Shown: piece by piece, positions 1 to 60,364 of the stretch | Layout of the letters: every line of letters starts with the position of its first letter | Position numbering within the stretch: the stretch's first letter is position 1 | Sequence record: MZ726793.1 | Length of the DNA: 64,000 bases | From: Escherichia phage vB_EcoM_ASO2A | Direction: 5' to 3' (one strand) | Made by a program: the position numbers and the translations under genes | The notes under the pieces: model-generated | Database searches by the model: none | Told to the model about the DNA's origin: nothing | What the model saw: only the letters and a program-made list of their open reading frames with translations

Positions 1-26
1 GGGCGCACCAAGCGCCCTTTCTTTTT
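1..26 (+). terminator. Rho-independent terminator (GGGCGC-ACCAA-GCGCCC + T-run)
   Basis: GC hairpin followed by TTTCTTTTT; near-identical copies at 3983 and 5121. Confidence 0.6.
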
Positions 27-47
27 ACATGTAGAGGATAAACAAAA

Positions 48-233
48 ATGACTTTAAACGAGCTTAAAACAGCCTATAACGCAACATTAAAAATAGCCGT
101 GCGTTACCGTGACGAATACGGTTTTATTGCGCAGGGTGTGATCCTGGGCTTTTCTGACGATGGTTTGATCTATGTTGATGCACATCACAACAAGGTTAAA
201 CCTGAAAACGTCATTAGCATAAAATATCTTTAA
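48..233 (+). CDS. hypothetical protein
   Basis: 61-aa ORF; SD GAGGA upstream of ATG. Confidence 0.5.
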   Translation: MTLNELKTAYNATLKIAVRYRDEYGFIAQGVILGFSDDGLIYVDAHHNKVKPENVISIKYL

Positions 234-239
234 AAACGC

Positions 240-267
240 TTGACACCATAACCAGGTAGGATAAGAT
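240..267 (+). promoter_or_regulatory. sigma70-like early promoter with 5' hairpin
   Basis: TTGACA, 16-nt spacer, TAAGAT; then TAGGGCGG and hairpin 281-295. Confidence 0.55.
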
Positions 268-318
268 GTATCACATAGGGCGGGAATAGTTCCCGACCAC
301 ATAAAAGAGAAAAACATT

Positions 319-531
319 ATGACCACTATCACAACAAAACAAGAAAAAATTATTACAGACATTGCCGCAGTAGCCGCTATTGCTATTATCGGTACCTACT
401 ATGACACCGCGCGTCCTTCCTCCTTGCATGAGATCGCCGCCGTTGCATCAGTTGGCGTGCTGTTTTACGTTGGTAAACGTTATTTATCACCAATGATTAA
501 CAAGCTGACACCGTGGAAAAATAAAGGTTGA
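319..531 (+). CDS. hypothetical protein (hydrophobic)
   Basis: 70-aa ORF; A-rich RBS; hydrophobic stretch IAAVAAIAIIG. Confidence 0.5.
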   Translation: MTTITTKQEKIITDIAAVAAIAIIGTYYDTARPSSLHEIAAVASVGVLFYVGKRYLSPMINKLTPWKNKG

Positions 532-555
532 TCCTGTTTTACATTGTGTTATAGT
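528..555 (+). promoter_or_regulatory. sigma70-like early promoter with 5' hairpin
   Basis: TTGATC, 16 nt, TATAGT; TAGGGCGG; hairpin GCGGCA-ATGG-TGCCGC 567-582. Confidence 0.5.
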
Positions 556-602
556 TATCGTGTAGGGCGGCAATGGTGCCGCGCCCCTTTGAGGATGCAA
601 TC

Positions 603-887
603 ATGAGTAAAGCTAACACCGTGCTAATGTTTTCCCTGATTAATGATCCCGCTTACTTGTCCAACATGACGCAGGAGGGTAACACATTAACGGCAACATT
701 CACCAATAAGCTTGACCGAGTGATCATCATCTCACTGAAAACAGTTAGTAAAGGCTTTTACTCGTTAGCTTATCATTGGATCACTGATACCGACGAGACA
801 AGCCAGGACTATAGCGCCCCTTTCCCTGAATCAATGGCACGGGAGATCATCGCCGCCGTTGTAAATGATGGTTTGTTTACTGCATAA
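603..887 (+). CDS. hypothetical protein
   Basis: 94 aa; start moved from 573 to ATG 603 (SD GAGGA) because the 5' hairpin overlaps 573. Confidence 0.5.
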   Translation: MSKANTVLMFSLINDPAYLSNMTQEGNTLTATFTNKLDRVIIISLKTVSKGFYSLAYHWITDTDETSQDYSAPFPESMAREIIAAVVNDGLFTA

Positions 888-904
888 ATAATTTAGAAAA
901 AGGC

Positions 905-932
905 TTGCAATCATTTTGAGATAGTGTATATT
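905..932 (+). promoter_or_regulatory. sigma70-like early promoter with 5' hairpin
   Basis: TTGCAA, 16 nt, TATATT; TAGGGCGG; hairpin 949-961. Confidence 0.5.
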
Positions 933-984
933 TAATTCATAGGGCGGCGGGAATAGTTCCCAAAGCAAACGAGAGGATTACACG

Positions 985-1104
985 ATGAGCAAGTACACAG
1001 TAGAATACACGGTAGAGAATCCGGTAGTATCCGAAGGTAAAAAGATGACATTTGCCATCAGTATAATCGCTTTCGTTGTCACTATCTTATCAATCATCTT
1101 ATAA
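985..1104 (+). CDS. small membrane protein (39 aa)
   Basis: ORF below track cutoff; SD GAGAGGA; one hydrophobic helix. Confidence 0.45.
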   Translation: MSKYTVEYTVENPVVSEGKKMTFAISIIAFVVTILSIIL

Positions 1105-1114
1105 GGTGCACACC

Positions 1115-1276
1115 ATGAAAATAACAGACATTATCAAAGAGATCGCCCTTGCCGCTGGCGTTGAAGTCGAGGAAGTGATCGCGCTCAATCTTACAGAAAA
1201 CGATCTGCGCAACTATGAAGCGGAAAGCGTGAAAGCAAGCGGCGCGGTCCTGGCATATAATCCGGCTAACAAATAG
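1115..1276 (+). CDS. hypothetical protein
   Basis: 53 aa from internal ATG 1115 with SD AAGGTG (track ORF 1076..1276). Confidence 0.45.
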   Translation: MKITDIIKEIALAAGVEVEEVIALNLTENDLRNYEAESVKASGAVLAYNPANK

Positions 1277-1277
1277 T

Positions 1278-1305
1278 TTGACAAGCTGAATCAACCTGAT
1301 AAGAT
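1278..1305 (+). promoter_or_regulatory. sigma70-like early promoter with 5' hairpin
   Basis: TTGACA, 16 nt, TAAGAT; TAGGGGCG; hairpin GGGGCG-ACAAG-CGCCCC 1316-1332. Confidence 0.55.
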
Positions 1306-1356
1306 GTATCACATAGGGGCGACAAGCGCCCCGCCTAACAGAAGAGAGAAAAAATC

Positions 1357-1635
1357 ATGACCATCGTTAAATTAACAACCGAAGAAATGAAAACAATGTT
1401 AACCACTAATTTACAAAATTGGAAAATTGGTGTTGACGTTGAAACAGTGTGCAAGTTGAACGACAAACTAACACCGGACGACATTGAAACGATCATCCGT
1501 GCAGATTTCTATGATGCTTTATACGATGATTCCACAGTCCTTGAAACGATGTTGGATAACGCTTGGATCAATCCCGATTTGGCGGCTTATGGTCATCTTG
1601 CCTTTGAAGCCATCCATAATGTTTATAATCGTTAA
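1357..1635 (+). CDS. hypothetical protein
   Basis: 92-aa ORF; RBS GAGAGAAAAAATC-ATG. Confidence 0.55.
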   Translation: MTIVKLTTEEMKTMLTTNLQNWKIGVDVETVCKLNDKLTPDDIETIIRADFYDALYDDSTVLETMLDNAWINPDLAAYGHLAFEAIHNVYNR

Positions 1636-1645
1636 GGGGGATAAC

Positions 1646-1756
1646 ATGAATCCGAAAGATATGCAAGCATGGAAAGGGTACGACGATCTAAGCGCCTTGC
1701 GCAATAAGTCAAGCCGTAACTTTAGACGGTTGGAAGCAAAGAAAAAGAAAAAATAG
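1646..1756 (+). CDS. small basic protein (36 aa)
   Basis: SD AGGGGG 7 nt before ATG 1646; C-terminal part of track ORF 1484..1756. Confidence 0.4.
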   Translation: MNPKDMQAWKGYDDLSALRNKSSRNFRRLEAKKKKK

Positions 1757-1757
1757 T

Positions 1758-1785
1758 TTGACAAGTCCGCGTAGTCTGGTAATAT
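1758..1785 (+). promoter_or_regulatory. sigma70-like early promoter with 5' hairpin
   Basis: TTGACA, 16 nt, TAATAT; TAGGGCGG; hairpin 1798-1813. Confidence 0.55.
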
Positions 1786-1834
1786 GTATCTTGTAGGGCG
1801 GCAATGGTGCCGCTCACAAGAAGAGAGAAAAATC

Positions 1835-2119
1835 ATGAAAATTACAAAAAGCCTAACTAATTATGCAGCACGTCGCGGATTATGCTTAACCGTTGAAAAC
1901 TTAGGGAAAGAAGACTTTTTGTGTTTTTGGGAGCTTGAGAATGATTGCGAGTGGATGTTTTCTTATTCTATCTGCGAAGATCAAAACGGTTGTTTGTTAA
2001 CCTGGCGCGGTAATATCTATTTACCGGAAGAAATTAAAGAAGAGTTACCAGGTACGATCATGACAGAGAGACAGCTTAAAGAAGTGATCAATTTTGTAGG
2101 GCAAAACATTAAAAAATAA
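1835..2119 (+). CDS. hypothetical protein
   Basis: 94 aa from ATG 1835 downstream of the 5' hairpin. Confidence 0.5.
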   Translation: MKITKSLTNYAARRGLCLTVENLGKEDFLCFWELENDCEWMFSYSICEDQNGCLLTWRGNIYLPEEIKEELPGTIMTERQLKEVINFVGQNIKK

Positions 2120-2120
2120 T

Positions 2121-2149
2121 TTGACAGTAGGCAAACAACGTAGTAAAGT
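2121..2149 (+). promoter_or_regulatory. sigma70-like early promoter with 5' hairpin
   Basis: TTGACA, 17 nt, TAAAGT; TAGAGCGG; hairpin 2161-2182. Confidence 0.5.
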
Positions 2150-2204
2150 TTATTACATAGAGCGGCGGAATGGTCCACCGCTCACAACAGAAGAGAAACA
2201 AATC

Positions 2205-2375
2205 ATGATCCCGACTATGTTTTATGTATCGCGCAAAGGTCACAATATTTTTTGGTCTGAAGATTTAAATGAAGCTATGACGTTTGCCCATGATCGTGTT
2301 GCTATCGGTGGCGTTAACATCACTGTAACCGATGAAAACGGCATTGAATACTATAACGGCGACGATGAAGAATAA
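2205..2375 (+). CDS. hypothetical protein
   Basis: 56 aa from ATG 2205 downstream of the hairpin. Confidence 0.45.
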   Translation: MIPTMFYVSRKGHNIFWSEDLNEAMTFAHDRVAIGGVNITVTDENGIEYYNGDDEE

Positions 2376-2423
2376 TTAATGAGGCGGGGGGAGTATTCCC
2401 CGCCGTCAATAAAGAGGTAAATC

Positions 2424-2693
2424 ATGAAAATATCATTAGACGTTGCAATCAAGGCCATCGAATCCGGTTACATCCTGGTAAAAGATGATAAGGCTAAAAC
2501 CGTGCACCACGTTAACAAGGAAACAGGCGAAAGCATGATCACATATAAAGCCGCCTACTTTCTCCAATCAGTAGCAGATCCGCGCGTACAACGCCAGGTT
2601 ACAGCGGCTATTGCTAAAAAATTATGTGCTTTACAGGGCACAAGTTTTAACGAGATCGCCCCGTGTTTTGACTGGTCGAGCTTGAAAAAATAA
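2424..2693 (+). CDS. hypothetical protein
   Basis: 89-aa ORF; RBS AAGAGGTAAATC-ATG; GC hairpin 2383-2404 upstream. Confidence 0.55.
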   Translation: MKISLDVAIKAIESGYILVKDDKAKTVHHVNKETGESMITYKAAYFLQSVADPRVQRQVTAAIAKKLCALQGTSFNEIAPCFDWSSLKK

Positions 2694-2694
2694 T

Positions 2695-2722
2695 TTGACA
2701 ACAATTATAAATCGGGTAGAAT
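2695..2722 (+). promoter_or_regulatory. sigma70-like early promoter with 5' hairpin
   Basis: TTGACA, 16 nt, TAGAAT; TAGGGCGG; hairpin 2733-2756. Confidence 0.55.
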
Positions 2723-2774
2723 GTATTTCGTAGGGCGGGGCAATAAGGCAACGCCCATTAATGAGGGTAGAATC

Positions 2775-2879
2775 ATGTTAGAGAAAATTTTCACGGTCGT
2801 AGTAGTGGGCCTGGCGTTATCGGTTGGAGTGGTTGCAACTATGGCTAACATGATCCTATCTTCCCACGGTATTGGATAA
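2775..2879 (+). CDS. small membrane protein (34 aa)
   Basis: ORF below track cutoff; single hydrophobic helix. Confidence 0.45.
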   Translation: MLEKIFTVVVVGLALSVGVVATMANMILSSHGIG

Positions 2880-2889
2880 GGTGAATCAA

Positions 2890-3105
2890 ATGATCACGAA
2901 TAAGACAGGTAAAACAGAATTTTTACGCGCCTTGCAGATCGGCAAGCCTGAGATCTGGCATTGCACTAAATCCGCGCATAATGAAATGAAAGATTTTACC
3001 GCTACTTTACAACGTGTTAAAATATCTATCACACAGAAAAAAGCCTTGTTAGTAGTAGAAAACGAGATCCCGCAAACTATTATTATTGTCGAGCGTACAG
3101 CATGA
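2890..3105 (+). CDS. hypothetical protein
   Basis: 71 aa from ATG 2890 with SD AAGGTG. Confidence 0.5.
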   Translation: MITNKTGKTEFLRALQIGKPEIWHCTKSAHNEMKDFTATLQRVKISITQKKALLVVENEIPQTIIIVERTA

Positions 3106-3488
3106 AAACAGAAATCATTATTGAAATCATCAACGGTTATAAAGAAGCCTTTATTTTTGCTGAATCAGCAAGGGATCATGAAGGTAATTTTATTGATAAC
3201 TTAGACGATTATGATTTTTCTCCTAGCGCGGACGAACGGATCGCCCAGGATGTAACAGCCTTTATTAATGCTAATCTTGCCGCTATCTCTGAGGCAATGA
3301 GCGACGGCGCAACAGCCAACCAGATCGGGAATGATTTACATTTTACCCGTAACGGTCACGGCGCAGGCTTTTGGGATCGCCCTGAAATATACACCACTAA
3401 CACGGCGAACCGCCTAACCAATGCAGCTAAGTTTATGCCGAACGTGTCGGCTTACATTGGTGAAGATAATTTGATTTATATTGAATAA
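3102..3488 (+). CDS. hypothetical protein
   Basis: 128-aa ORF; ATGA start/stop overlap with upstream gene. Confidence 0.55.
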   Translation: MKTEIIIEIINGYKEAFIFAESARDHEGNFIDNLDDYDFSPSADERIAQDVTAFINANLAAISEAMSDGATANQIGNDLHFTRNGHGAGFWDRPEIYTTNTANRLTNAAKFMPNVSAYIGEDNLIYIE

Positions 3489-3494
3489 AAAGTA

Positions 3495-3522
3495 TTGACA
3501 CCGATCCCCAATATGGTACTAT
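3495..3522 (+). promoter_or_regulatory. sigma70-like early promoter with 5' hairpin
   Basis: TTGACA, 16 nt, TACTAT; TAGGCGGG; hairpin 3533-3553. Confidence 0.55.
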
Positions 3523-3576
3523 TTACCACGTAGGCGGGAAATGGTTTCCCGCCAGGTAATCAAAAAGGTAAATACT

Positions 3577-3966
3577 ATGCGCAACCTGGTTTCTGTTTCT
3601 AACGTTGAAAAATTTCAATCTTTACAGGGTATCGTTAACAACGTAGCGCCTTTTTTAGTCAACGGCTTGATTGCAAAGATGAAAAATAAACATCATGCGG
3701 CATGGTCTGCTTACTGCTTTGATAATGATGAAAAAGCGGCTGAAATGATGCTAAATATGCTGTTAGACAGTGTAGAATCATCTTTACCGGAAAACATCGC
3801 AGAAGAGATCACCTATCGTTATAATATGGCGATCACTTACCAGGAGGTTGCGCAATTTAATATGATGGACGATGACGAACAACAGGATCAGGAAATGTTT
3901 TGGGAGTATGCTGATCGTCAATCGGCTTTTGATGAAAAATTAGCGATGTATTATAACGAATATTAA
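3577..3966 (+). CDS. hypothetical protein
   Basis: 129 aa from ATG 3577 downstream of the hairpin. Confidence 0.55.
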   Translation: MRNLVSVSNVEKFQSLQGIVNNVAPFLVNGLIAKMKNKHHAAWSAYCFDNDEKAAEMMLNMLLDSVESSLPENIAEEITYRYNMAITYQEVAQFNMMDDDEQQDQEMFWEYADRQSAFDEKLAMYYNEY

Positions 3967-3982
3967 TACACGGTAAAAGAAA

Positions 3983-4006
3983 GGGGCGCACTAAGCGCCC
4001 TTTTTT
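3983..4006 (+). terminator. Rho-independent terminator
   Basis: GGGCGC-ACTAA-GCGCCC followed by TTTTTT. Confidence 0.65.
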
Positions 4007-4351
4007 GTATTCTTTTTTCACGATGGAAACAACACGTAAAGAATAGGCGTAAAGGTGGCGTAAAACCATCTAAAACCGACTGTAACCGCTTAAACAAGGT
4101 AGGAATGATTAATCACCTTACCAGGATGAAAAAGCCGTTATAAAGCTATCTAGAGCGTTTAAAGCACATAGGAAATAATTTGCTTTTTATCTTGCCTTTT
4201 ACCCTGCTTTTGATTATTATTATGGAACGGGCGGCACCTGGAAGCAGGGGAAGATAATCACCGGAAGACCCCGCTATATATTGATAGCTAACATCTATCA
4301 AACAACAAAACATCAAAGAGATAAACTATCAAATCTTTACAATCCTACCTA

Positions 4352-4380
4352 TTGACACCGGATCACGCTTACATTATCAT
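4352..4380 (+). promoter_or_regulatory. sigma70-like early promoter with 5' hairpin
   Basis: TTGACA, 17 nt, TATCAT; TAGGGCGG; hairpin 4392-4410. Confidence 0.55.
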
Positions 4381-4428
4381 TTATCACGTAGGGCGGGAAT
4401 GTTTCCCGCCTGATTTAGGAGTCATATC

Positions 4429-4662
4429 ATGATCGAACAAATTAAAAGCACTAAACCAAATGTTAACGGTAATGTTTCTCACTTTATCGGGGATAATGAA
4501 AGAGGTACACCGTACGCCGCCGTAACCGTTCAACCGAACGGGGATTATTGGTTTACCGTGTACGGATCTTACTCTTTTGGACGTTCGGCACATGATAAGA
4601 TCTTGCAAGTGGTTAAGCCTACTGGGAAGAATATCACAGCAGAAAAATTTTATAAAAAATAA
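4429..4662 (+). CDS. hypothetical protein
   Basis: 77-aa ORF; SD AGGAG 7 nt upstream. Confidence 0.55.
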   Translation: MIEQIKSTKPNVNGNVSHFIGDNERGTPYAAVTVQPNGDYWFTVYGSYSFGRSAHDKILQVVKPTGKNITAEKFYKK

Positions 4663-4663
4663 C

Positions 4664-4692
4664 TTGCTTTATAGCTCCTGTTAACTTATAGT
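4664..4692 (+). promoter_or_regulatory. sigma70-like early promoter
   Basis: TTGCTT, 17 nt, TATAGT; TAGGGCGA downstream. Confidence 0.45.
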
Positions 4693-4741
4693 TATTGCGT
4701 AGGGCGAGCAATACAGCAAGCCCACAAAGAGGAAAATAAAA

Positions 4742-5110
4742 ATGAGCAAATCAGCAATTAAAGCACTTGAAAAAGCACAAGAAGTGATCGCAACGTCAAC
4801 CACTGGCGCAAAGGTTAATCTTGTTGGTTATCTGACAGATGAAACTATCCGTAAAAATTGGCGTAATGCTGATTTACTGGCTTGCTTATTGATTAATAGT
4901 GTCGCTAATGCTTTCCAGTGCGAAACAGCCGAGAGCCTGGAGGAAAACTTGTTTGATAATATGGATCAAGCCATTGAAACCTATATACAATCAAACATGG
5001 ATAGCTGGAACAGTAAAACATGGCCCGACAATTTACGCGATACAACTGATCAACTGATCCGCCTTGCCCTGATGGTTGAACGCGATAACGTTCACAACCG
5101 CACAAAGTAA
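4742..5110 (+). CDS. hypothetical protein
   Basis: 122-aa ORF; RBS AAGAGGAAAATAAAA-ATG. Confidence 0.55.
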   Translation: MSKSAIKALEKAQEVIATSTTGAKVNLVGYLTDETIRKNWRNADLLACLLINSVANAFQCETAESLEENLFDNMDQAIETYIQSNMDSWNSKTWPDNLRDTTDQLIRLALMVERDNVHNRTK

Positions 5111-5120
5111 GATTATACAA

Positions 5121-5148
5121 GGGGCGCACTAAGCGCCCTTTCTTTTTG
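5121..5148 (+). terminator. Rho-independent terminator
   Basis: GGGCGC-ACTAA-GCGCCC followed by TTTCTTTTT. Confidence 0.65.
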
Positions 5149-6659
5149 CCTAAATAATGTTGATAGATTCCGCCTATGGAAAACCGACACAGAACAAAAC
5201 TGAATAAATAGCGGTATCGAGCTAATCAACCATTAAACGAATAACCATACCTCCCAGGGTAACAGGCTGTTAGAGAGCCATTTAGAGCGGTTAAAATCGA
5301 TCAACAACCAACAACAAACCATCAAAAACACCCTTTTACCTCCTTTCTAGTGCAATGATAACCATTATCATCTATCCATGTTTATCTATGCAATATAAGT
5401 GCATAACTATAATGTTGATAATAGTTCGCAACAACTAACTAACCAACAACCTAAAACAATAAGCAAACTAATCATAATCAAAGGAATAATAGCAAGATGA
5501 TTGATAACGACAAACAATCAAACTATGATGAATACTAAGCAAGATAACGATAATACGACAAAACAACCAACTAACGAACAATAACAAACGAAACCATTAA
5601 AATAATAACTATTAGCAAAATAGTGCCTGAATGAAATCATTACAAAACGAATCATTCACAGGATCATCATTAGCACGCTATGCCGGACACATAGCGAGCT
5701 AATAATAAGCCAACTACACCCCAACAATCATAACCATCGGTGATGGTTATTTCTTGTTACTGCGTAGCTTGCAATAATTGCAAGCGTAATACGCTTACAC
5801 TTATTGCGCTGGCTTATTATTAGCATTATATGTAATTACCAAGATCATAACATTAGCGCAATAACAATAATCATTGTGGTAATTACAAGATGAAATCATT
5901 AGCAAGATGAATAATTGCACGTAGCAACATGAGCGAATAGCGACAGGTTGCATAGTGTGCACATAGATGTACACGCAGTGTATAAACATACAAGAAAATA
6001 AAGGCTAATCTTTCGGGGGCGAATACTATCGCGTAGCGATATGTTGAGCATCTTCTCTTAAACGTAAATAAAATCAGAAAATTCTTGATTTATTTTAGTT
6101 TTTATGTTAATAAACGTTTAAATAATAATCATTCTCATATAAATAATAGTCTGCTTGTCATGAGCGGGATCAGTTGACAATGTTCCGTCATATGATGAAG
6201 TTGCCAAACCATTGATAAATAAGTGTTTGTGTGATTTATAATCAAGTGGCCCACCTTGTCGCTATGTTGGCATGAGCCTTGCATAAGTCCTTGAATACGA
6301 ATGATAATTATTCTCATTCTCATGATATTTGGGAATTGTCGCTGCGTGGACCTGACGGCCCGAAAATTCGCGTTAAGCACTTCTTACGTATGCGCCATGA
6401 TTTTTGCCATATGATATTGATTCTATTAGATATTCTTGCCATGATTGCCATGAAACAGGGTGTCCCGAAATAATCTCTCCCCGTAGATATTTTGGGTTAC
6501 TTTTTATACAAGAGTGGGGTGTCAAAAATAATCGGTATATATGGGATAATTGATAGGAATCCCCTATGATAATTCGATTGTAATTCCCTGAGATTGATCG
6601 TATGATGTTGGTGATTGATGATTGCCATGAAAGATGGCTAACGATGAGAGGAGATTATC
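5141..6659. repeat. 1.5 kb non-coding A-rich region with short direct repeats
   Basis: No ORF with RBS; top strand A-rich and G-poor; repeated ATTAGCAAGATGA, GATTGCCATGAAA and ATCATTCTCAT motifs. Confidence 0.5.
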
Positions 6660-9809: not shown

Positions 9810-10109
9810 ATGAATCTGACCGAACAGTTACGCCGTATTGCAAAAGAAGCTTCCTTCAACTTCCCTGTTGAAGAAGTGATCGAGACATGTTTTGCTGAAG
9901 CACGAGCGGGGAATTCTTCAAGAAATTTCACACCATCTGATTTTGGTCTGGATAATTCCCCTACCCACCCAGGGGCGATCTACAATCAGGTGAAGTGGAT
10001 GGATGAAGCAGTAGCAATTCTTCGTGAGCGTGGGCTTATTGTTTATAAAGAAATGGATCTGAACGGGGCATACGAGTGGATCACTATTGATTGGTCCGAG
10101 GTGAAATGA
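9810..10109 (+). CDS. hypothetical protein
   Basis: 99-aa ORF; SD AAGGAG. Confidence 0.55.
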   Translation: MNLTEQLRRIAKEASFNFPVEEVIETCFAEARAGNSSRNFTPSDFGLDNSPTHPGAIYNQVKWMDEAVAILRERGLIVYKEMDLNGAYEWITIDWSEVK

Positions 10110-11242: not shown

Positions 11243-11464
11243 ATGAAAATTAGAGTTTGTGATGTATTGGGTTATGTTGGTTTTGAGAATGTTCAGATTC
11301 CTTTTGTTGTTGAAGCACATCTTGTTAGCGATGACATGACAACATTCTTTGTTACGATAGAAGAAATGTCCAAAGTTGAGGGATGGGAGTGGTTTGAAGA
11401 AGATGTTTGGGAAGGTTGTGATTACGTATTTTTCTCTGACGAAGTGAATATTCTTGCGGAGTAG
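11243..11464 (+). CDS. hypothetical protein, paralog family B
   Basis: 73 aa; SD AAAGGAG; C-terminal motif shared with 7305..7526. Confidence 0.55.
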   Translation: MKIRVCDVLGYVGFENVQIPFVVEAHLVSDDMTTFFVTIEEMSKVEGWEWFEEDVWEGCDYVFFSDEVNILAE

Positions 11465-11466
11465 GT

Positions 11467-11673
11467 ATGTCTTGTTTTACAAAAGCAGTGTCCATATGTA
11501 AGAAACAATATGAAAGTGATTACGGAATATTTAATATTCCAGTAGATCATACAGAGTATTGTTCATGTGGTGGCAGAATGAAGAAAACAGTGATTTATGC
11601 GGATAATGGAGATGAACTTGTTCCGGTTGTGGTTTGCAAAGCTTGTCATTCTGTTAAAACATTAAAAGCGTAA
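11467..11673 (+). CDS. putative zinc-ribbon protein
   Basis: 68 aa with CSCGG...CKAC cysteine pairs. Confidence 0.5.
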   Translation: MSCFTKAVSICKKQYESDYGIFNIPVDHTEYCSCGGRMKKTVIYADNGDELVPVVVCKACHSVKTLKA

Positions 11674-11768
11674 GGAGTCGGGACACCCGACGATTGGAGC
11701 TAAAAATTTTGCGTACAACCCTTTCCGCCCAACAGGGGCGCGTCGGGTAAGTAAAGAGGAGAGTTTAT

Positions 11769-12167
11769 ATGAAAAAGATCATCGTAGGTTTCTTGTTACT
11801 CATTGCATCACTTGGAACAGCAAATGCGTCTCAAGTTTATGAGTGTGTGTCAGATGTGGTTGTTAAAAATCTGAAAGGTGAAGTGATTTCTGGTCCTAAG
11901 AAAATGGCTTCTGTTGTCATTAATAAAGATAACTCCTTTATCCTTAAAAATTCAGGTGGTGCTTTGATGAGTGGCATTCTGCAATACACAGGAGAAAAAA
12001 GTAAAGATGGTAGTGCTATGTATGGTTCACAACAGTTTATTGGCACTACTGAAGTTGTGATGATGCGCACAGAGTATCGAGACACTTTAGCTTGGTTTGC
12101 ATTTCTAAAAAATGATAAAACAATAACGAATGTTCTTACTCTAGAAGCTGATTGTACGCAACGATAA
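11769..12167 (+). CDS. secreted protein with signal peptide
   Basis: 132 aa; N-terminal MKKIIVGFLLLIASLGTANA; SD AGAGGAG. Confidence 0.6.
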   Translation: MKKIIVGFLLLIASLGTANASQVYECVSDVVVKNLKGEVISGPKKMASVVINKDNSFILKNSGGALMSGILQYTGEKSKDGSAMYGSQQFIGTTEVVMMRTEYRDTLAWFAFLKNDKTITNVLTLEADCTQR

Positions 12168-13524: not shown

Positions 13525-13797
13525 ATGAATAAAGATCGGTTTCTTTCTTTAGTCGCGGAAGCTCCTTTTGATGTTCTTGGGGTGAGATTATGGAAAGACA
13601 GAAACTATGGGTTAGATGTTCAAACATACTCTCTTTGGTTGGTTGGGGAGCACAGCTTAGATGAAAGCTTGTGCATGGGTAGGGATTCTCGTTCCCTCTG
13701 TTTAAAGTTCAGAAGCTTAGAACGCGCAAACAAAGAGCAAGAAAAACTAACGAGGTGGCTAAATGAAAACAAGCGCAAGGTTGATGGAGTTTTATAA
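13525..13797 (+). CDS. hypothetical protein
   Basis: 90-aa ORF; SD AAGGTGG. Confidence 0.55.
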   Translation: MNKDRFLSLVAEAPFDVLGVRLWKDRNYGLDVQTYSLWLVGEHSLDESLCMGRDSRSLCLKFRSLERANKEQEKLTRWLNENKRKVDGVL

Positions 13798-14089
13798 AAT
13801 TTATCTAGCATGGATTGATGTTGGTGCTCCTGATGGTAAACCTTTTCGGCGGGATTGCGGTTTGTGTGCCAACTTATTCGACTATGTGCACGCGGATGGC
13901 TACAATCCCCTTATAACAACCTTGTCAGATGAAATGCACGCACAGTTTTACCACAAAGGGTTAAGTCAAGAATTACCCTTCAATGAGAACTACGATGCAT
14001 ATGTCTTAGAATCAGATGCAGAGGTATGTCACCTGAATGTGGACAGGATTAATTGGGTAAGAGATCGTATTGCAGAGGAGGATGAATAA
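13763..14089 (+). CDS. hypothetical protein, paralog family A
   Basis: 108 aa; family A motifs; overlaps upstream gene. Confidence 0.55.
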   Translation: MKTSARLMEFYKIYLAWIDVGAPDGKPFRRDCGLCANLFDYVHADGYNPLITTLSDEMHAQFYHKGLSQELPFNENYDAYVLESDAEVCHLNVDRINWVRDRIAEEDE

Positions 14090-14316: not shown

Positions 14317-14531
14317 TCATGTGGATTGTGCGTCTTAAGTATGATGGCAAGTTTCCGTGGGAGAAAGATGTTTGTGCTTGTGATTCGGCAGCACATGCCA
14401 AAGCAGCGGGTCAGGCAGTAGTTGACATGTATAACAACACTTCCGTTGATCCAGAAATGGCAGGTGTTACAATGAGCATGTTCACTTACTATTCTTTTGA
14501 GGTTTACTATCATGAAGGAGAGTGGAAATGA
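14313..14531 (+). CDS. hypothetical protein
   Basis: 72-aa ORF; ATGA overlap. Confidence 0.5.
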   Translation: MIMWIVRLKYDGKFPWEKDVCACDSAAHAKAAGQAVVDMYNNTSVDPEMAGVTMSMFTYYSFEVYYHEGEWK

Positions 14532-14848
14532 GCGAAGAACTATTAACATTTTACCGCACGTATTTGGCATGGTTGGAAGCTGGTGCTCCTGAAGGCGAAC
14601 CGTTCACCCGTTGCACAGGTTTGTGCTCGAACCTCTATGATTTTTACGATATGGGTGAAAGCGAACGATACGAACCCGTACTGGATGAAATGCATGAGCA
14701 GTTCTACCGCAAAGGTTTGGTTATGGTGTTGCCTTTCAACAGTAATTTTGGAAAGTACACCTTAGAAGCGGAAAAAAGCCGCTGTCACTTGAATGTGGAT
14801 CGTGTGAACTGGGTAAAAGAACGTGTAGCAGAAGAAATAATTGGTTGA
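14522..14848 (+). CDS. hypothetical protein, paralog family A
   Basis: 108 aa; closest paralog of 13763..14089. Confidence 0.6.
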   Translation: MEMSEELLTFYRTYLAWLEAGAPEGEPFTRCTGLCSNLYDFYDMGESERYEPVLDEMHEQFYRKGLVMVLPFNSNFGKYTLEAEKSRCHLNVDRVNWVKERVAEEIIG

Positions 14849-16003: not shown

Positions 16004-16216
16004 ATGAAGGTACATTACCCTCATCCGTTTGATCCTAAAAACAAAGCCGTAATTCTTCGTCAGTGGCAACGGGTTTGTCGTACTAAATGTCCAATCAATA
16101 GCCCACACAATGTAGACAAGGACTATCTTGGGACATTTGTTGAATACACTTACATAGACAAAAACAAGCGTAAACAACATGTCGAGGAATACTGCTTAAG
16201 AGTAGAATGGCTGTAA
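16004..16216 (+). CDS. hypothetical protein
   Basis: 70-aa ORF immediately after upstream stop. Confidence 0.5.
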   Translation: MKVHYPHPFDPKNKAVILRQWQRVCRTKCPINSPHNVDKDYLGTFVEYTYIDKNKRKQHVEEYCLRVEWL

Positions 16217-16228
16217 ATAATAAATACC

Positions 16229-16257
16229 TTGACAAATGTTTATTCGTTTTGTAAAGT
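16229..16257 (+). promoter_or_regulatory. sigma70-like promoter upstream of recombinase
   Basis: TTGACA, 17 nt, TAAAGT; near-palindrome AATAAA..TTTATT around the -35. Confidence 0.45.
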
Positions 16258-16286
16258 GAGAATACAGCAATGGTTTAGGAGTGGTT

Positions 16287-16958
16287 ATGAAAAAGTTTGT
16301 TGTTTACAGTCGTCTTTCTAAACAGAAAAAAGGTGAGGCACAATATGGTATGGAGAGCCAAGAGAACGATATCCGTTACTTCTTAGACTCTGTACCTGAT
16401 GCGGAAGTTATTGGTCAATTTTCTGAATACTATTCGGGTAAGGGCGATTGGAAGCAACGTAAGGAACTGGTTAAAGCGGTTGAAATGTGTAAAGCTACCG
16501 GAGCAACTTTATTGGTAGCTAAAGTTGACCGCTTGGGTCGTAACAACGCCTCCGTAGCAACTCTTCTAGAAATGATCGATGTTAAGATAGCCATCATGCC
16601 AGACGCAGATAAAATGGTTATACAGCTTCTGTCTGTTCTGGCTGAACAAGAAGTTAGAGGTATTGCTGATCGTATTAAAAAGGGTCTTGCTGTAGCAAAA
16701 AGCAAAGGTGTTTTATTAGGCAGTGCTAATCCTAAAACTGCCGCTGCACGTAGAAAAGGAAAAATGGAATACAACTCTGTTAAAGCAGACGCTTTTGCAG
16801 AGACATTCCGTGAACGTTTGGAGATCCTTAGAGATTTAAATACACCTTACAAAACTATTGCTGAAAAATTCAATAGTAAGAAAATAGCAACAGCACGTGG
16901 TGGTAAATGGGATGCTAAAACTGTTTCTCGTTTGTGTGCCAGACTGAACATTAAATAG
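16287..16958 (+). CDS. serine recombinase (resolvase/invertase family)
   Basis: 223 aa from ATG 16287; N-terminal VVYSRLS...Q with LLVAKVDRLGRN, C-terminal HTH-like region. Confidence 0.7.
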   Translation: MKKFVVYSRLSKQKKGEAQYGMESQENDIRYFLDSVPDAEVIGQFSEYYSGKGDWKQRKELVKAVEMCKATGATLLVAKVDRLGRNNASVATLLEMIDVKIAIMPDADKMVIQLLSVLAEQEVRGIADRIKKGLAVAKSKGVLLGSANPKTAAARRKGKMEYNSVKADAFAETFRERLEILRDLNTPYKTIAEKFNSKKIATARGGKWDAKTVSRLCARLNIK

Positions 16959-16966
16959 GAGAGGAT

Positions 16967-17389
16967 ATGAAACAAGAAAATGAATCTGTAGATCACTTAA
17001 TCATGCTGTCAGCCCTTTTTGCCGGATGGGACGTATTTTTTGAAAATTTGTTCAATTCTGCTACAGATGGTTCCGATTTTATGCGCCAGTTTAAACGACG
17101 AACTGTTGAGGACTATGCTTTCTATTCAGGTCGGATTGAAAAAGGTTACGAAGATACAAATACAACACTCACCATTAAAGTTTTAGATGTGATGTTTAGT
17201 GTTATAGATGCTATCGACGAAAGTCTTCCGATCCTAGATAATTGTAATACGAAAGTCTATGTTTACAAAATAGCTCGTGCTTATGTGTCTGCAAACAGTT
17301 GTCTTCTTTCCACCCAGATTGCCGTGAACAATCTTGCCAACTTGTTTGATGAAGGAGAAACTTTTTATGACAATCGATTTGAAGTGTAA
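16967..17389 (+). CDS. hypothetical protein
   Basis: 140-aa ORF; SD AGGAGAGG. Confidence 0.55.
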   Translation: MKQENESVDHLIMLSALFAGWDVFFENLFNSATDGSDFMRQFKRRTVEDYAFYSGRIEKGYEDTNTTLTIKVLDVMFSVIDAIDESLPILDNCNTKVYVYKIARAYVSANSCLLSTQIAVNNLANLFDEGETFYDNRFEV

Positions 17390-17732
17390 GAGGATTCTTT
17401 TAGATTTCTATAATAATTGGTTAGAACACCTCCGGCTCTTTCCAAGAGAAAGTGGTTACGCTGATGTTGGCTTATGCCGAGGTCTACGTATGTATATAAG
17501 TGATGAATTTCGGGCCGAGCATTCTTTAGCATATTCTGTTTATGGTATGCAATTAGCCAGTTTTGAAAACGCTGGCTTAGATACAACTTTCCCATTTAAC
17601 ACAGCAAAATCTTTTGAGCAAGAGTGTAAGGAAAAACGTTGCATGTTTAATGAAAAACGTGTACAGTGGGTTAAGGATCGAGTTAAACAACTGGAACAAG
17701 AGTTGGATTTCTTCTATGATGAGGCAGAATAA
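17367..17732 (+). CDS. hypothetical protein, paralog family A
   Basis: 121 aa from ATG 17367; SD GAAGGAG; family A motifs. Confidence 0.55.
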   Translation: MTIDLKCKRILLDFYNNWLEHLRLFPRESGYADVGLCRGLRMYISDEFRAEHSLAYSVYGMQLASFENAGLDTTFPFNTAKSFEQECKEKRCMFNEKRVQWVKDRVKQLEQELDFFYDEAE

Positions 17733-18620: not shown

Positions 18621-18671
18621 CAGTTGCACCCCGTTCTGCGGGGTGTTATTGTATATGTAAAGGAGGCGCTA

Positions 18672-19010
18672 ATGTATTACACTGAAGACTACATATTGTA
18701 TAACTTTTTTAAAGGTTGGTTGAAATGGGCGGAACAAGCTCCTGTCGGAGATTGTGTTTTTCCTTGGGATTCTCGTCAAGGCTTGTGTCGTTGTTTGGAA
18801 GATTGGCTTATAACCACAAACTACAATTCAGAAACTAAGAAATCTACATCAAACAGATTAAAAATGTTGTTTGAAGAAGATGGTTTAGATCCAATTTATC
18901 CTTTCGGTGAGGAAAGTTTCCACAATGGTCTTTTCCTTGGCACTCAACATTATGATAAAGATCGTGTAGATTGGGTAAAAGAAAAGGTAGCACAGTATGA
19001 ATGGGGTTAA
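18672..19010 (+). CDS. hypothetical protein, paralog family A
   Basis: 112 aa from ATG 18672; SD AAAGGAGG; family A motifs. Confidence 0.55.
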   Translation: MYYTEDYILYNFFKGWLKWAEQAPVGDCVFPWDSRQGLCRCLEDWLITTNYNSETKKSTSNRLKMLFEEDGLDPIYPFGEESFHNGLFLGTQHYDKDRVDWVKEKVAQYEWG

Positions 19011-31582: not shown

Positions 31583-32173
31583 TCAAATTATTAACGAAAC
31601 CGCATGACTAAATCTTGGTTCAGATATAACCTCTGCTACAGTAACATATGTATCGTGCAGCCAAAAAGATTCTACTCTACAAACACAAATACCGTTGATA
31701 ATGAAATCTACACAGGCTTTATTATTTTCGCACACTTGTTGACTATAAACAACCCCTAAAGAGTCATAAAGTGATCTCACTGTTGCTACCATTTCATCTG
31801 TTTCGTCTTCCTGTGAAACAAAGAAAACGAATACAGACAAGTTATTAGCGAAAGTATTGCTATTCTCTACTTCAACCGACTTACAAGGTAAAAAGGAGTA
31901 ATATTTACCATTAGGTATCAATTTCGCCTCAACCTGGTTAAGTATGCTTTGAGATGGTTTTGTTACATAAAAAAGATTTTCTGTTGGGTTTTCAACATTA
32001 CTCCTTACTATGCAACGAGTGGGGTTCGAAGGATCAAAAACATGATCGAAATCGACACACACAGGTAAGTTAACAACTTTAAACTTTTTGCTAAGAATGC
32101 TTACTGCTGTAAAAATCAAACCAGCATTTATTTTGCCAGTGAAAGTTGAACGCATAACTACTCCTCGGATCAT
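31583..32173 (-). CDS. hypothetical protein
   Basis: 196-aa ORF; ATGA overlap with upstream gene. Confidence 0.5.
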   Translation of the reverse strand: MIRGVVMRSTFTGKINAGLIFTAVSILSKKFKVVNLPVCVDFDHVFDPSNPTRCIVRSNVENPTENLFYVTKPSQSILNQVEAKLIPNGKYYSFLPCKSVEVENSNTFANNLSVFVFFVSQEDETDEMVATVRSLYDSLGVVYSQQVCENNKACVDFIINGICVCRVESFWLHDTYVTVAEVISEPRFSHAVSLII

Positions 32174-32364
32174 TCTACCAAAGAGAATTCCGCCTCTTCC
32201 AGGTAGATTACAGACCTTGTTGCATGATATTTAACGCTCCAGAAATTACCTTCGCGCCGTAAAAGTATCTCATTCACATCAAGATTGCTTAGAAAAACCA
32301 TATAACTTAAAGCTTGTTGACGCGTTGAGAATTGTTTCTCTAAAAGTTCTTCTCCGCTCTGCAT
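32170..32364 (-). CDS. hypothetical protein
   Basis: 64-aa ORF. Confidence 0.45.
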   Translation of the reverse strand: MQSGEELLEKQFSTRQQALSYMVFLSNLDVNEILLRREGNFWSVKYHATRSVIYLEEAEFSLVE

Positions 32365-32409
32365 AATCCCTCCTTAAAATACTCCCTCCGAAAAGGGAGT
32401 ATAAGTATA

Positions 32410-32613
32410 TCACGTAGTTGTTATGTTGTCTTCTTGGATTCTAGAATCCACTTCTGCAAACATATCTTCTGCACTGTAATTATTTCCAGTCCAGCGTGAT
32501 AAAAGGATAGCACCAATCTCTTTTGCATGAGATTCGGACTCCGCATAAACGTTAGTCCCAGTGTCACCTTTTTTCTTTTCATGTGCATAAATGCAGTAAT
32601 AATTGTAAGCCAT
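32410..32613 (-). CDS. hypothetical protein
   Basis: 67-aa ORF. Confidence 0.45.
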   Translation of the reverse strand: MAYNYYCIYAHEKKKGDTGTNVYAESESHAKEIGAILLSRWTGNNYSAEDMFAEVDSRIQEDNITTT

Positions 32614-59699: not shown

Positions 59700-59952
59700 T
59701 CTAGCCTCCTAAACGCGTCTCTGACGCACTTTTATATATAAGATGATAAATCACCTTACCTAGTAAGTAAACTTGCTCTACAGCCTCTTATGAAGCTTAT
59801 GTTATAGGCTATACTATTGCTACCTGTTTAAGCAAGGTTTTTGCACACAGAAAATAATTTTTAATAAAACTCTTGACTTTTGTGTTCGAAGTATGCTACC
59901 CTAGAAATCTATTAACGAGCGCAGCGAGTTAAGGTTTTAGGTTGGTGATGTA

Positions 59953-59985
59953 GTACTCTGTACTCAAGTACTGTACTCCGTACTA
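59953..59985. repeat. Five tandem GTACT(C) iteron-like repeats
   Basis: GTACTC, GTACTC, GTACT, GTACTCC, GTACTA within 33 bp. Confidence 0.6.
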
Positions 59986-60030
59986 GATTAATAATTATTA
60001 AATATTAATAATAAATAATTATTAGATCTA
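59986..60030. repeat. AT-rich palindromic tract
   Basis: TTAATAATTATTAA palindrome and TAATAATAAATAATTATTA, essentially pure A/T. Confidence 0.55.
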
Positions 60031-60117
60031 ACAAACAGGTACAGTGTATCAGAACTGGTACGTACAGATCAACTTCTATCAATTAAAAATAAAATAATAA
60101 ATTATTATAAATAATAC

Positions 60118-60146
60118 TTGATCTATAGATTAGTATGAAGTACAGT
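60118..60146 (+). promoter_or_regulatory. sigma70-like promoter
   Basis: TTGATC, 17 nt, TACAGT; then SD GGAGGTG and ATG 60179. Confidence 0.45.
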
Positions 60147-60178
60147 ACGAAACATCTTAACAAGAATGGAGGTGTGCA

Positions 60179-60364
60179 ATGATTAGTGAGAATCCGTGCA
60201 AATGGCATCATGTGCCTATTAAAGATTGTATGTCTTGTAATCCACGTTCTATTTATAACATTGCATCTTATGATGATGACAATGTGTTAGACGATGATGA
60301 AGGCTGGGAGGATTTAGATTGGACTGGTTATGAAACCAAAAAGGATAAAATTATTCCTAGTTGA
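60179..60364 (+). CDS. hypothetical protein
   Basis: 61-aa ORF; SD GGAGGTG. Confidence 0.5.
   Translation: MISENPCKWHHVPIKDCMSCNPRSIYNIASYDDDNVLDDDEGWEDLDWTGYETKKDKIIPS

Follow-up and report, generated by a model that had tools for sequence, protein, structure and literature searches.

Why should a clade of virulent phages retain a serine recombinase under strong selection while its DNA-binding domain is exchanged, and on what DNA would such an enzyme act? This modest question is raised by a gene of Escherichia phage vB_EcoM_ASO2A (sequence record MZ726793.1), of which a stretch of 64,000 nucleotides (nt), here called the window, was analyzed. The gene lies at 16287-16958 on the plus strand (stop codon included) and encodes a protein of 223 amino acids (aa). 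An earlier note, made from the sequence alone, had taken the product for a small serine recombinase that may drive a DNA inversion switch, resolve concatemers, or mark a small inserted element. Judged from its sequence and predicted fold, the protein is an intact small serine recombinase that should be catalytically competent, in which a catalytic domain like that of resolvases is followed by an alpha-E helix and a single helix-turn-helix (HTH) of the recombinase-like kind. Its gene is a long-standing one in a virulent myovirus clade to which the Stephanstirmvirinae and relatives such as Shewanella phages 1/4 and 1/40 belong. A role as tail-fibre switch invertase or as lysogeny integrase is not supported. 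A reaction at a single site on phage DNA is tentatively preferred here, and among the three roles first proposed the resolution of concatemers or multimers is the least contradicted.

The catalytic domain

Residues 5-142 match the Pfam Resolvase family (PF00239, E 5e-18). The best PHROG match is PHROG 125, 'DNA invertase' (E 3e-32), and the matches in the PDB are Tn3 and gamma-delta resolvase chains (E 3e-6). These agree with the identification in the earlier note, and both motifs that it had singled out, VVYSRLS and LLVAKVDRLGRN, are found in the protein. Residues Y7, R9, S11, Q25, R58, D81, R82 and R85 do not vary across an alignment of 36 sequences reaching down to 30% identity. As nucleophile serves S11, which is the second serine of YSRLS and is aligned with S10 of gamma-delta resolvase, and the DRLGR segment aligns with both the gamma-delta and the Tn3 enzymes. 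In gamma-delta numbering, we take the nucleophile and the catalytic arginine and aspartate set to be S10, R8, R45, D67, R68 and R71. The note's own test of its assignment was whether the catalytic serine and arginines align on homology search; since they do, and are invariant across the 36 homologues, the assignment withstands it.

The catalytic domain with the long alpha-E helix occupies residues 1-146 (16287-16724, plus strand), as delimited by PF00239, the invariant residues, AlphaFold and Foldseek. The AlphaFold model (mean pLDDT 89) has the catalytic fold, an alpha-E helix at residues 109-139 and a small helical C-terminal domain. This order, in which the catalytic core is followed by the long helix and then by a DNA-binding domain, is the layout of the serine recombinase superfamily. 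Foldseek matches the model to Sin, to gamma-delta resolvase and to the catalytic domains of large serine recombinases; alignments with large serine integrases such as Bxb1 span ~250-260 columns.

The gene and its phage

The window is from a phAPEC8-like virulent myovirus, Phapecoctavirus (Stephanstirmvirinae), and over 5 kb it shares 99.6% identity with Escherichia phage tuntematon. The group has been described as strictly lytic (PMC5374246; PMC10282059), and phages of the Stephanstirmvirinae type have short direct terminal repeats (PMC6563267; PMC12695924). The 329-bp terminal repeat of phage Schickermooser maps to window positions 6047-6375, and the recombinase gene therefore lies ~10 kb inside the physical left end of the genome, where it is set in a block of small co-directional genes. 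This fits its earlier placement in the early block of a virulent-looking phage. No transposase was found near the gene among the open reading frames (ORFs) and annotation of the window.

The ATG start is preceded, at a distance of 5 nt, by the ribosome-binding site AGGAG (16277-16281, plus strand), read from the sequence. A program-made list begins the same ORF at GTG 16281, a start that would lack a ribosome-binding site. The upstream spacer is 70 bp long, and the promoter is the only element in it. This is a sigma-70-type promoter, TTGACA-17-TAAAGT (16229-16257, plus strand), which agrees with the consensus at 10 of 12 positions and is predicted to be active. A TTGACA promoter stands at an equal distance 5' of the orthologues in the phiWec-like locus L007, in phage ESCO13, at seven Justusliebigvirus-type loci and in the Shewanella phages. 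It is kept at both of the loci at which the gene occurs, even within a co-directional gene block. That the gene has a promoter of its own, as had been proposed, is borne out by these equivalents in other genera.

The C-terminal domain

The linker and C-terminal DNA-binding domain (residues 147-223; 16725-16955, plus strand) form a winged HTH of the HTH_62 or PF07508 N-terminal type. No HTH_7 is present in the recombinase; Pfam reports PF00239 plus a weak PF07508 match, and nothing else. The weak match covers residues 187-216, corresponding to model positions 19-48 of 102, and falls below the cut-off. A whole-library phmmer search with the C-terminal domain alone gave matches in proteins that Pfam assigns to HTH_62 and to PF07508 (Recombinase). 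The resolvase/invertase layout with an HTH-like C-terminal region, described in the earlier note, is thus retained, but the type of the region is HTH_62 / PF07508 rather than HTH_7. The protein has the layout of the Resolvase + HTH_62 small recombinases, in which PF00239 is followed by a single recombinase-like HTH within a total of ~215-245 aa. Full-length homologues, of which 93 were collected, range from 213 to 258 aa, and some have precomputed PF07508 or PF20552 matches.

The two halves of the protein differ sharply in their conservation. Identity to the homologous protein P0005 is 94% in the catalytic domain and 98% in the alpha-E helix, but 31% in the linker and 39% in the C-terminal domain. 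Against the phiWec-like L007 (~85% nucleotide identity) the ratio of non-synonymous to synonymous substitution rates (dN/dS) is ~0.03 in the catalytic half and ~0.77 in the C-terminal part. Within one domain type, the C-terminal domain has 0 non-synonymous vs. 7 synonymous changes. Because identity and dN/dS split in this way between the catalytic and C-terminal parts, the DNA-binding domain has been either replaced or strongly diversified between close relatives, and is conserved within a type.

Capture of the domain from another protein was considered and rejected. An exhaustive phmmer search of 1.84 billion representative proteins gave no protein of different architecture with more than ~50% identity to the C-terminal domain; the best match outside the family had 38% identity (E 2e-11). 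A word-index search with the 76-aa domain returned nothing, which is probably a limit of the tool.

A mosaic of this kind is what would be expected if the enzyme served in conflict, recognizing a site in a phage satellite, a rival phage or a mobile element of the host and breaking or rearranging that DNA, with the binding domain exchanged as the target changes. Several observations fit. Searches of the phage's own genome gave no site; nucleases with swapped DNA-binding domains are reportedly used against E. coli satellites by Stephanstirmvirinae phages (Muut, Mt1B1_P17), and some of these satellites carry a serine recombinase (PMC10055350). In addition, the homologue in ICP1 isolate 2017_DRC_48 lies among genes without legacy gp numbers, which suggests an accessory region. 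Against such a weapon or counter-defence enzyme, the exhaustive search gave no sign that the domain came from an integrase of a satellite or of the host, purifying selection acts on the C-terminal domain within a type, and the position of the gene is stable over deep divergence. A conservative recombinase would also make a poor nuclease unless it were subverted. We regard this explanation as unlikely, although it is the foremost of the alternatives. The more specific proposal that a lytic lineage keeps a retargetable recombinase, with interchangeable DNA-binding domains directed against foreign DNA, is more doubtful still; it would parallel the Odn-type nucleases of the same phage group, which have swapped DNA-binding domains.

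Two reported systems were compared and set aside. The small-serine-recombinase family described as a defence marker (PMC13552941) is Gin-like, so it is a different family, and Adi of ICP1 (PMC9638900) is not a recombinase.

Inversion and integration

Small serine recombinases of phages are familiar as invertases of the Gin, Cin or Hin kind, which flip a segment next to their gene between two inverted sites of ~26 bp and thereby switch phase or host range. The label 'DNA invertase' attached to PHROG 125 and to several GenBank records points in this direction, and in the genome a tail-fibre assembly gene comes after a tail-fibre gene. The earlier note had advised a search for pairs of inverted repeats that might serve as recombination sites. 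Repeat searches were carried out on a composite genome of 150,519 bp, made from the window and the rest of tuntematon. Self-comparison of this ~150-kb sequence revealed no inverted-repeat pair of >=20 nt except terminators, and the direct repeats in it are a promoter-and-hairpin family near the genome ends. The 25-kb tail-fibre/baseplate module occurs in a single co-linear place, with no rearrangement, in ~60 related records, and no alternative tail-fibre gene ends in inverted orientation were seen. At 80 homologous loci from viral metagenomes, no inverted repeats were seen around the gene. With the lack of HTH_7, these results largely refute an inversion role, and the switch proposed in the note is very improbable.

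The tail-fibre gene gp133 of tuntematon, outside the window at composite position ~93309, contains a 38-bp dyad, CATTAACAGTGTTCAAA-ACAA-TTTGAATAATGTTAATA, with 14 of 17 arm matches. Its score is near chance, it has neither a partner site nor an inverted copy of the gene, and the tail-fibre assembly gene follows.

Integration, or maintenance of a plasmid state permitting cryptic lysogeny or pseudolysogeny, has to be considered since relatives at 33-38% identity are found in small phage-like contigs and predicted prophages, some with an attP-like 38-bp dyad just upstream; some homologues are named 'integrase', and a resolvase would stabilize an episomal carrier state. The window copy, however, has no such dyad, and blastn against 5,426 complete E. 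coli genomes gave no similar DNA and no prophage copy. Neither repressor nor partition genes are annotated in the genome, and the group is strictly lytic in the descriptions cited above. The integrase role is not supported, as there is no prophage and the protein is without the zinc-ribbon and coiled-coil domains; that the enzyme sustains some form of lysogeny is hardly to be expected.

History of the cassette

Comparison across related phages, also advised in the earlier note, showed the cassette in all of the ~62 close Phapecoctavirus records that match the locus. In Justusliebigvirus (alia, FKP3 and metagenomic loci) an orthologue 54-59% identical lies at a different locus. The unit there is exactly promoter plus ORF, and at seven loci it is placed between homologues of the window genes 32410-32613 and 32170-32364, both on the minus strand. 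In the window these two genes are separated by a 45-bp spacer (32365-32409, minus strand), the empty counterpart of the probably ancestral recombinase locus and possibly a deletion scar. By visual comparison, the spacer keeps GTGATA/TATACT, apparently a degraded -35/-10 pair, and a ribosome-binding site, AGGAGGGATTATG, that resembles that of the alia recombinase. Shewanella phages 1/4 and 1/40 and the metagenomic locus L014 have the orthologue in a homologous gene block; L015 was the Shewanella locus scanned, L016 not separately, and the flanks of L014 and L015 were resolved coarsely by tblastx. Because this gene block with its orthologue is common to Justusliebigvirus, the Shewanella phages and L014, the locus is probably ancestral. 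Phapecoctavirus and the phiWec-like lineage carry the recombinase at the second locus.

The recombinase is thus a self-contained cassette that was relocated once, an old resident of a virulent lineage rather than a recent insertion. The suggestion that it marks a small inserted element holds to the extent that a promoter-plus-ORF cassette occurs elsewhere in Justusliebigvirus; no element ends or terminal repeats were found around it, and it is old and vertically inherited. Purifying selection within the genus is strong: between the recombinase and that of UP17 there are 0 non-synonymous and 5 synonymous changes, and the corresponding numbers for ESCO13 are 0 and 13.

These findings bear on the possibility that the unit is a selfish or neutral cassette of little benefit to the phage, one that moves from one phage genome or locus to another and may do so by itself, like IS607-type serine transposases. 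The unit consists of one gene and a promoter for it, it occupies different loci in sister genera, its site in the window is empty, the mosaic breakpoint in ESCO13 is at the start codon, and the region in ICP1 is apparently an accessory one. Weighed against this are a single relocation across the whole clade, the sharing of the other locus from Justusliebigvirus to the Shewanella phages, the strong purifying selection and the presence of the cassette throughout the close Phapecoctavirus records. There are no terminal repeats or element ends, and the domain order is the reverse of that in IS607 TnpA. A selfish or neutral unit is therefore improbable.

Two copies of the gene have features of their own. 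In ESCO13 (positions 1960-2060 of locus L094, compared with window positions 16200-16310 and with L007) the sequence ahead of the gene resembles that of L007, but the ORF resembles that of the window. The two types meet somewhere in the first ~23 nt of the ORF, a stretch in which ESCO13, the window and L007 do not differ, and the ESCO13 promoter sits inside the 3' end of the upstream gene. In Schickermooser (positions 11303-11955 of locus L005, MK373788) the gene has eight gap openings in its first ~220 nt and is almost identical over the rest. A pseudogene was considered and rejected; since the neighbouring genes carry indels too, an error of sequencing or assembly is more likely.

Site and function

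The earlier note had pointed to a near-palindrome around the -35 element. It exists, at 16219-16244 (no strand assigned), as AATAAATACCTTG|ACAAATGTTTATT / AATAAATACCTTGACAAATGTTTATT, but it is weak: the outer arms alone match, it is not conserved, and it is judged to be due to chance. Its right arm is absent in ESCO13 and L007, the upstream region of the window has the lowest dyad score among 85 homologue upstream regions, and 405 hexamer dyads of such geometry occur genome-wide. It was rejected as a site. A dyad AATAAA-N(12-18)-TTTATT, common to the terminal repeat (6067-6094) and the promoter (16219-16244), was likewise put down to chance. It occurs twice in the window, the pattern was defined post hoc, the half-sites diverge past 7 nt, and the same genome-wide number of hexamer dyads applies.

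Distant homologues offer a different picture. In a subset of those from small plasmids and phage-like contigs, a dyad of 34-38 bp lies 30-50 bp upstream of the gene, with the consensus TACAAA-N6-TAACG-NN-CGTTA-N6-TTTGTA in one subgroup. Such dyads were seen at eight loci, among small phage-like contigs and a Klebsiella plasmid, and ~22% of homologue loci fall in the top decile of dyad score for their own locus (85 regions). The dyad is likely to be the cognate attP or res of an uncharacterized subgroup of small serine recombinases, and in the elements that bear it the gene and its site look like parts of a single module. Upstream of the Shewanella-phage orthologue there is a 34-bp dyad, present in one copy per genome; a second copy was sought and none was found. 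Full-length homologues with 35-39% identity are also carried by non-mobilizable plasmids of 5-7 kb, one of them with a 34-bp dyad ~50 bp upstream. Small non-mobilizable plasmids commonly carry a multimer resolvase.

Because the genome is without site pairs, the dyads of relatives are single-copy and homologues reside on plasmids, a single-site reaction on phage DNA, either resolvase-type or Cre-like, is tentatively favoured here, with a probability of about 0.35. On this proposal the gene would be transcribed by host RNA polymerase early in infection, and the recombinase would act at one site per genome copy. Dimers would bind the site on two genome copies or at two ends and then form a tetramer, which would make staggered double-strand breaks through phosphoserine links at S11. 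After rotation of one half of the complex by 180 degrees the ends would be religated. The products may be monomeric or circular replicative forms derived from multimers or concatemers, or site-specific crossovers between co-infecting genomes.

A number of results weigh against this proposal. Repeat, dyad and footprint searches found no target site for the window recombinase, and scoring of the 85 regions gave no convincing dyad in the window upstream region. Phylogenetic footprinting upstream of seven divergent Justusliebigvirus-type orthologues showed conservation of the -35, the extended -10 and the ribosome-binding site alone. Within 6 kb on each side of these seven genes, no conserved non-coding block was found beyond promoter, ribosome-binding-site and terminator elements. 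The 70-bp spacer is too short for a three-subsite res. It is itself by analogy that the plasmid homologues are taken for resolvases, and it is not obvious why a phage that packages from concatemers should have to resolve multimers. Exchange of the DNA-binding domain sits uneasily with an enzyme that depends on one constant site in its own genome, unless the site changes too; since ESCO13 joins one upstream type to the other type of ORF, a site in its upstream region would be mismatched.

Annotation and implications

A 100% identical recombinase is present in at least 62 public phage records, under the names hypothetical protein, resolvase, DNA invertase, serine recombinase, recombinase family protein and 'methionine ABC transporter ATP-binding protein'. 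The last of these, which looks like a propagated annotation error, is found in MW175890, MT496970, OR352955, OR062524, LR597654 and others, and further records have a 'putative ABC transporter ATP-binding protein' feature under the matching 5-kb stretch. Four records with other host or phage names, MG065650 (Campylobacter phage B15), OP562383 (Acinetobacter phage ABPW7), MH252123 (Klebsiella phage ZCKP1) and MW175890 (Dompiswa phage), are 96-99% identical to E. coli Phapecoctavirus over the recombinase region. These non-Escherichia host labels may be due to contamination, to a wide host range or to wrong labelling.

In the literature one report speculates that the recombinase keeps concatemers as single genomes (PMC10282059), and another says that recombinases are altogether absent from the group (PMC5374246). 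No experimental work on this recombinase was found in the literature. Because the kind of enzyme is known and identical sequences are annotated publicly, the finding is largely an ordinary one. New here are the assignment to the Resolvase + HTH_62 type, the exclusion of invertase and integrase roles, the history and relocation of the cassette, and the mosaicism of the DNA-binding domain. We know of no member of the Resolvase + HTH_62 subgroup that has been tested by experiment.

In the screening of phages for therapy, for which phAPEC8-like phages are candidates, a site-specific recombinase is routinely taken as a marker of lysogeny. The evidence against an integrase bears on such screening calls, and the identification corrects the widespread 'methionine ABC transporter' annotation. 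If the target is a single phage site, the gene and its site would make a compact, self-sufficient pair that might serve as a tool; if it is foreign DNA, the enzyme would represent a new kind of phage counter-defence.

Other features of the genome

The terminal repeat (6047-6375) contains Fur-box-like dyads at 6118-6140 and 6300-6335, aataataatcattctcat and gaatgataattattctcattctcatgat. The terminal repeat of BME3 (L091) has AATGATAATCATTATC, nearly perfect when compared with what we take to be the E. coli Fur box consensus. Near the right end, at composite positions 144455-144523 (~6 kb before the start of the window and outside it), there are two adjacent 40-bp dyads with a Fur-like half-site; one 40-bp right-end dyad has 15 of 17 arm matches, as compared with ~0.1 expected by chance. 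These dyads at the genome ends may respond to iron or have a part in packaging.

A 36-bp AT-rich, near-perfect palindrome, TAATAATTATT-N14-AATAATTATTA, is located at 59989-60024 with GTACT/GTAC repeats on both sides. It lies in a non-coding region of ~480 bp (59700-60180) between divergent units and before the tRNA cluster. The region looks like a replication origin, and it is also a candidate protein-binding site.

Paralogous small early genes at 13763-14089, 14522-14848, 17334-17732 and 18624-19010 share a C-terminal 'DRVNWVKERVAEE' and an 'AGAPxGxPF' motif. Copies of the motif of this family are also found near 9984 and 10791, and its members lie on both sides of the recombinase gene. In the window at 1-5200 and in the composite at 144-150 kb, at the right physical end of the genome, a repeated unit of promoter plus GC hairpin, e.g., GATAAGATGTATCACATAGGGCGG..., and a repeated terminator, GGGCGCACCAAGCGCCCTTT, stand ahead of many tiny ORFs.

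Comparison with known systems

Among the closest known enzymes are Tn3 and gamma-delta resolvase and Sin, with which the recombinase has in common the catalytic domain and alpha-E helix, the YxRxS and DRLGR motifs, the fold, a length of ~200 aa and a promoter directly upstream. It differs from them in that its C-terminal domain is not HTH_7, there is neither a three-subsite res (~114-120 bp) nor a Sin-type site, and no transposase or plasmid accompanies it; identity to the Tn3 and gamma-delta enzymes is low (phmmer E ~1e-6). Hin, Gin, Cin and Pin resemble it as small serine recombinases, phage-encoded and labelled as invertases in databases, but here there is no HTH_7, no inverted sites, no invertible segment and no inversion polymorphism.

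The large serine integrases (Bxb1, phiC31, A118) have in their first recombinase subdomain the same HTH family (PF07508 / HTH_62) as the C-terminal domain described here. They exceed 400 aa, as compared with 223, and the remainder of their recombinase domain, their zinc-ribbon domain and their coiled coil have no counterpart in the present protein; neither a prophage nor an attP/attB pair was found for it. In IS607 TnpA a MerR-like HTH at the N-terminus precedes the catalytic domain, the reverse of the order found here.

Cre-lox of phage P1 is an analogue in role, in which one simple site per genome serves to cyclize or monomerize phage DNA. Cre, however, is a tyrosine recombinase of an unrelated family, P1 is temperate with a plasmid prophage, and no lox-like site was found here. 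A further group is that of the uncharacterized 'recombinase family proteins' of small plasmids and phage contigs, full-length homologues which are 33-39% identical to the window protein and have the same two-domain layout; many of them have the upstream dyad that the window gene lacks.

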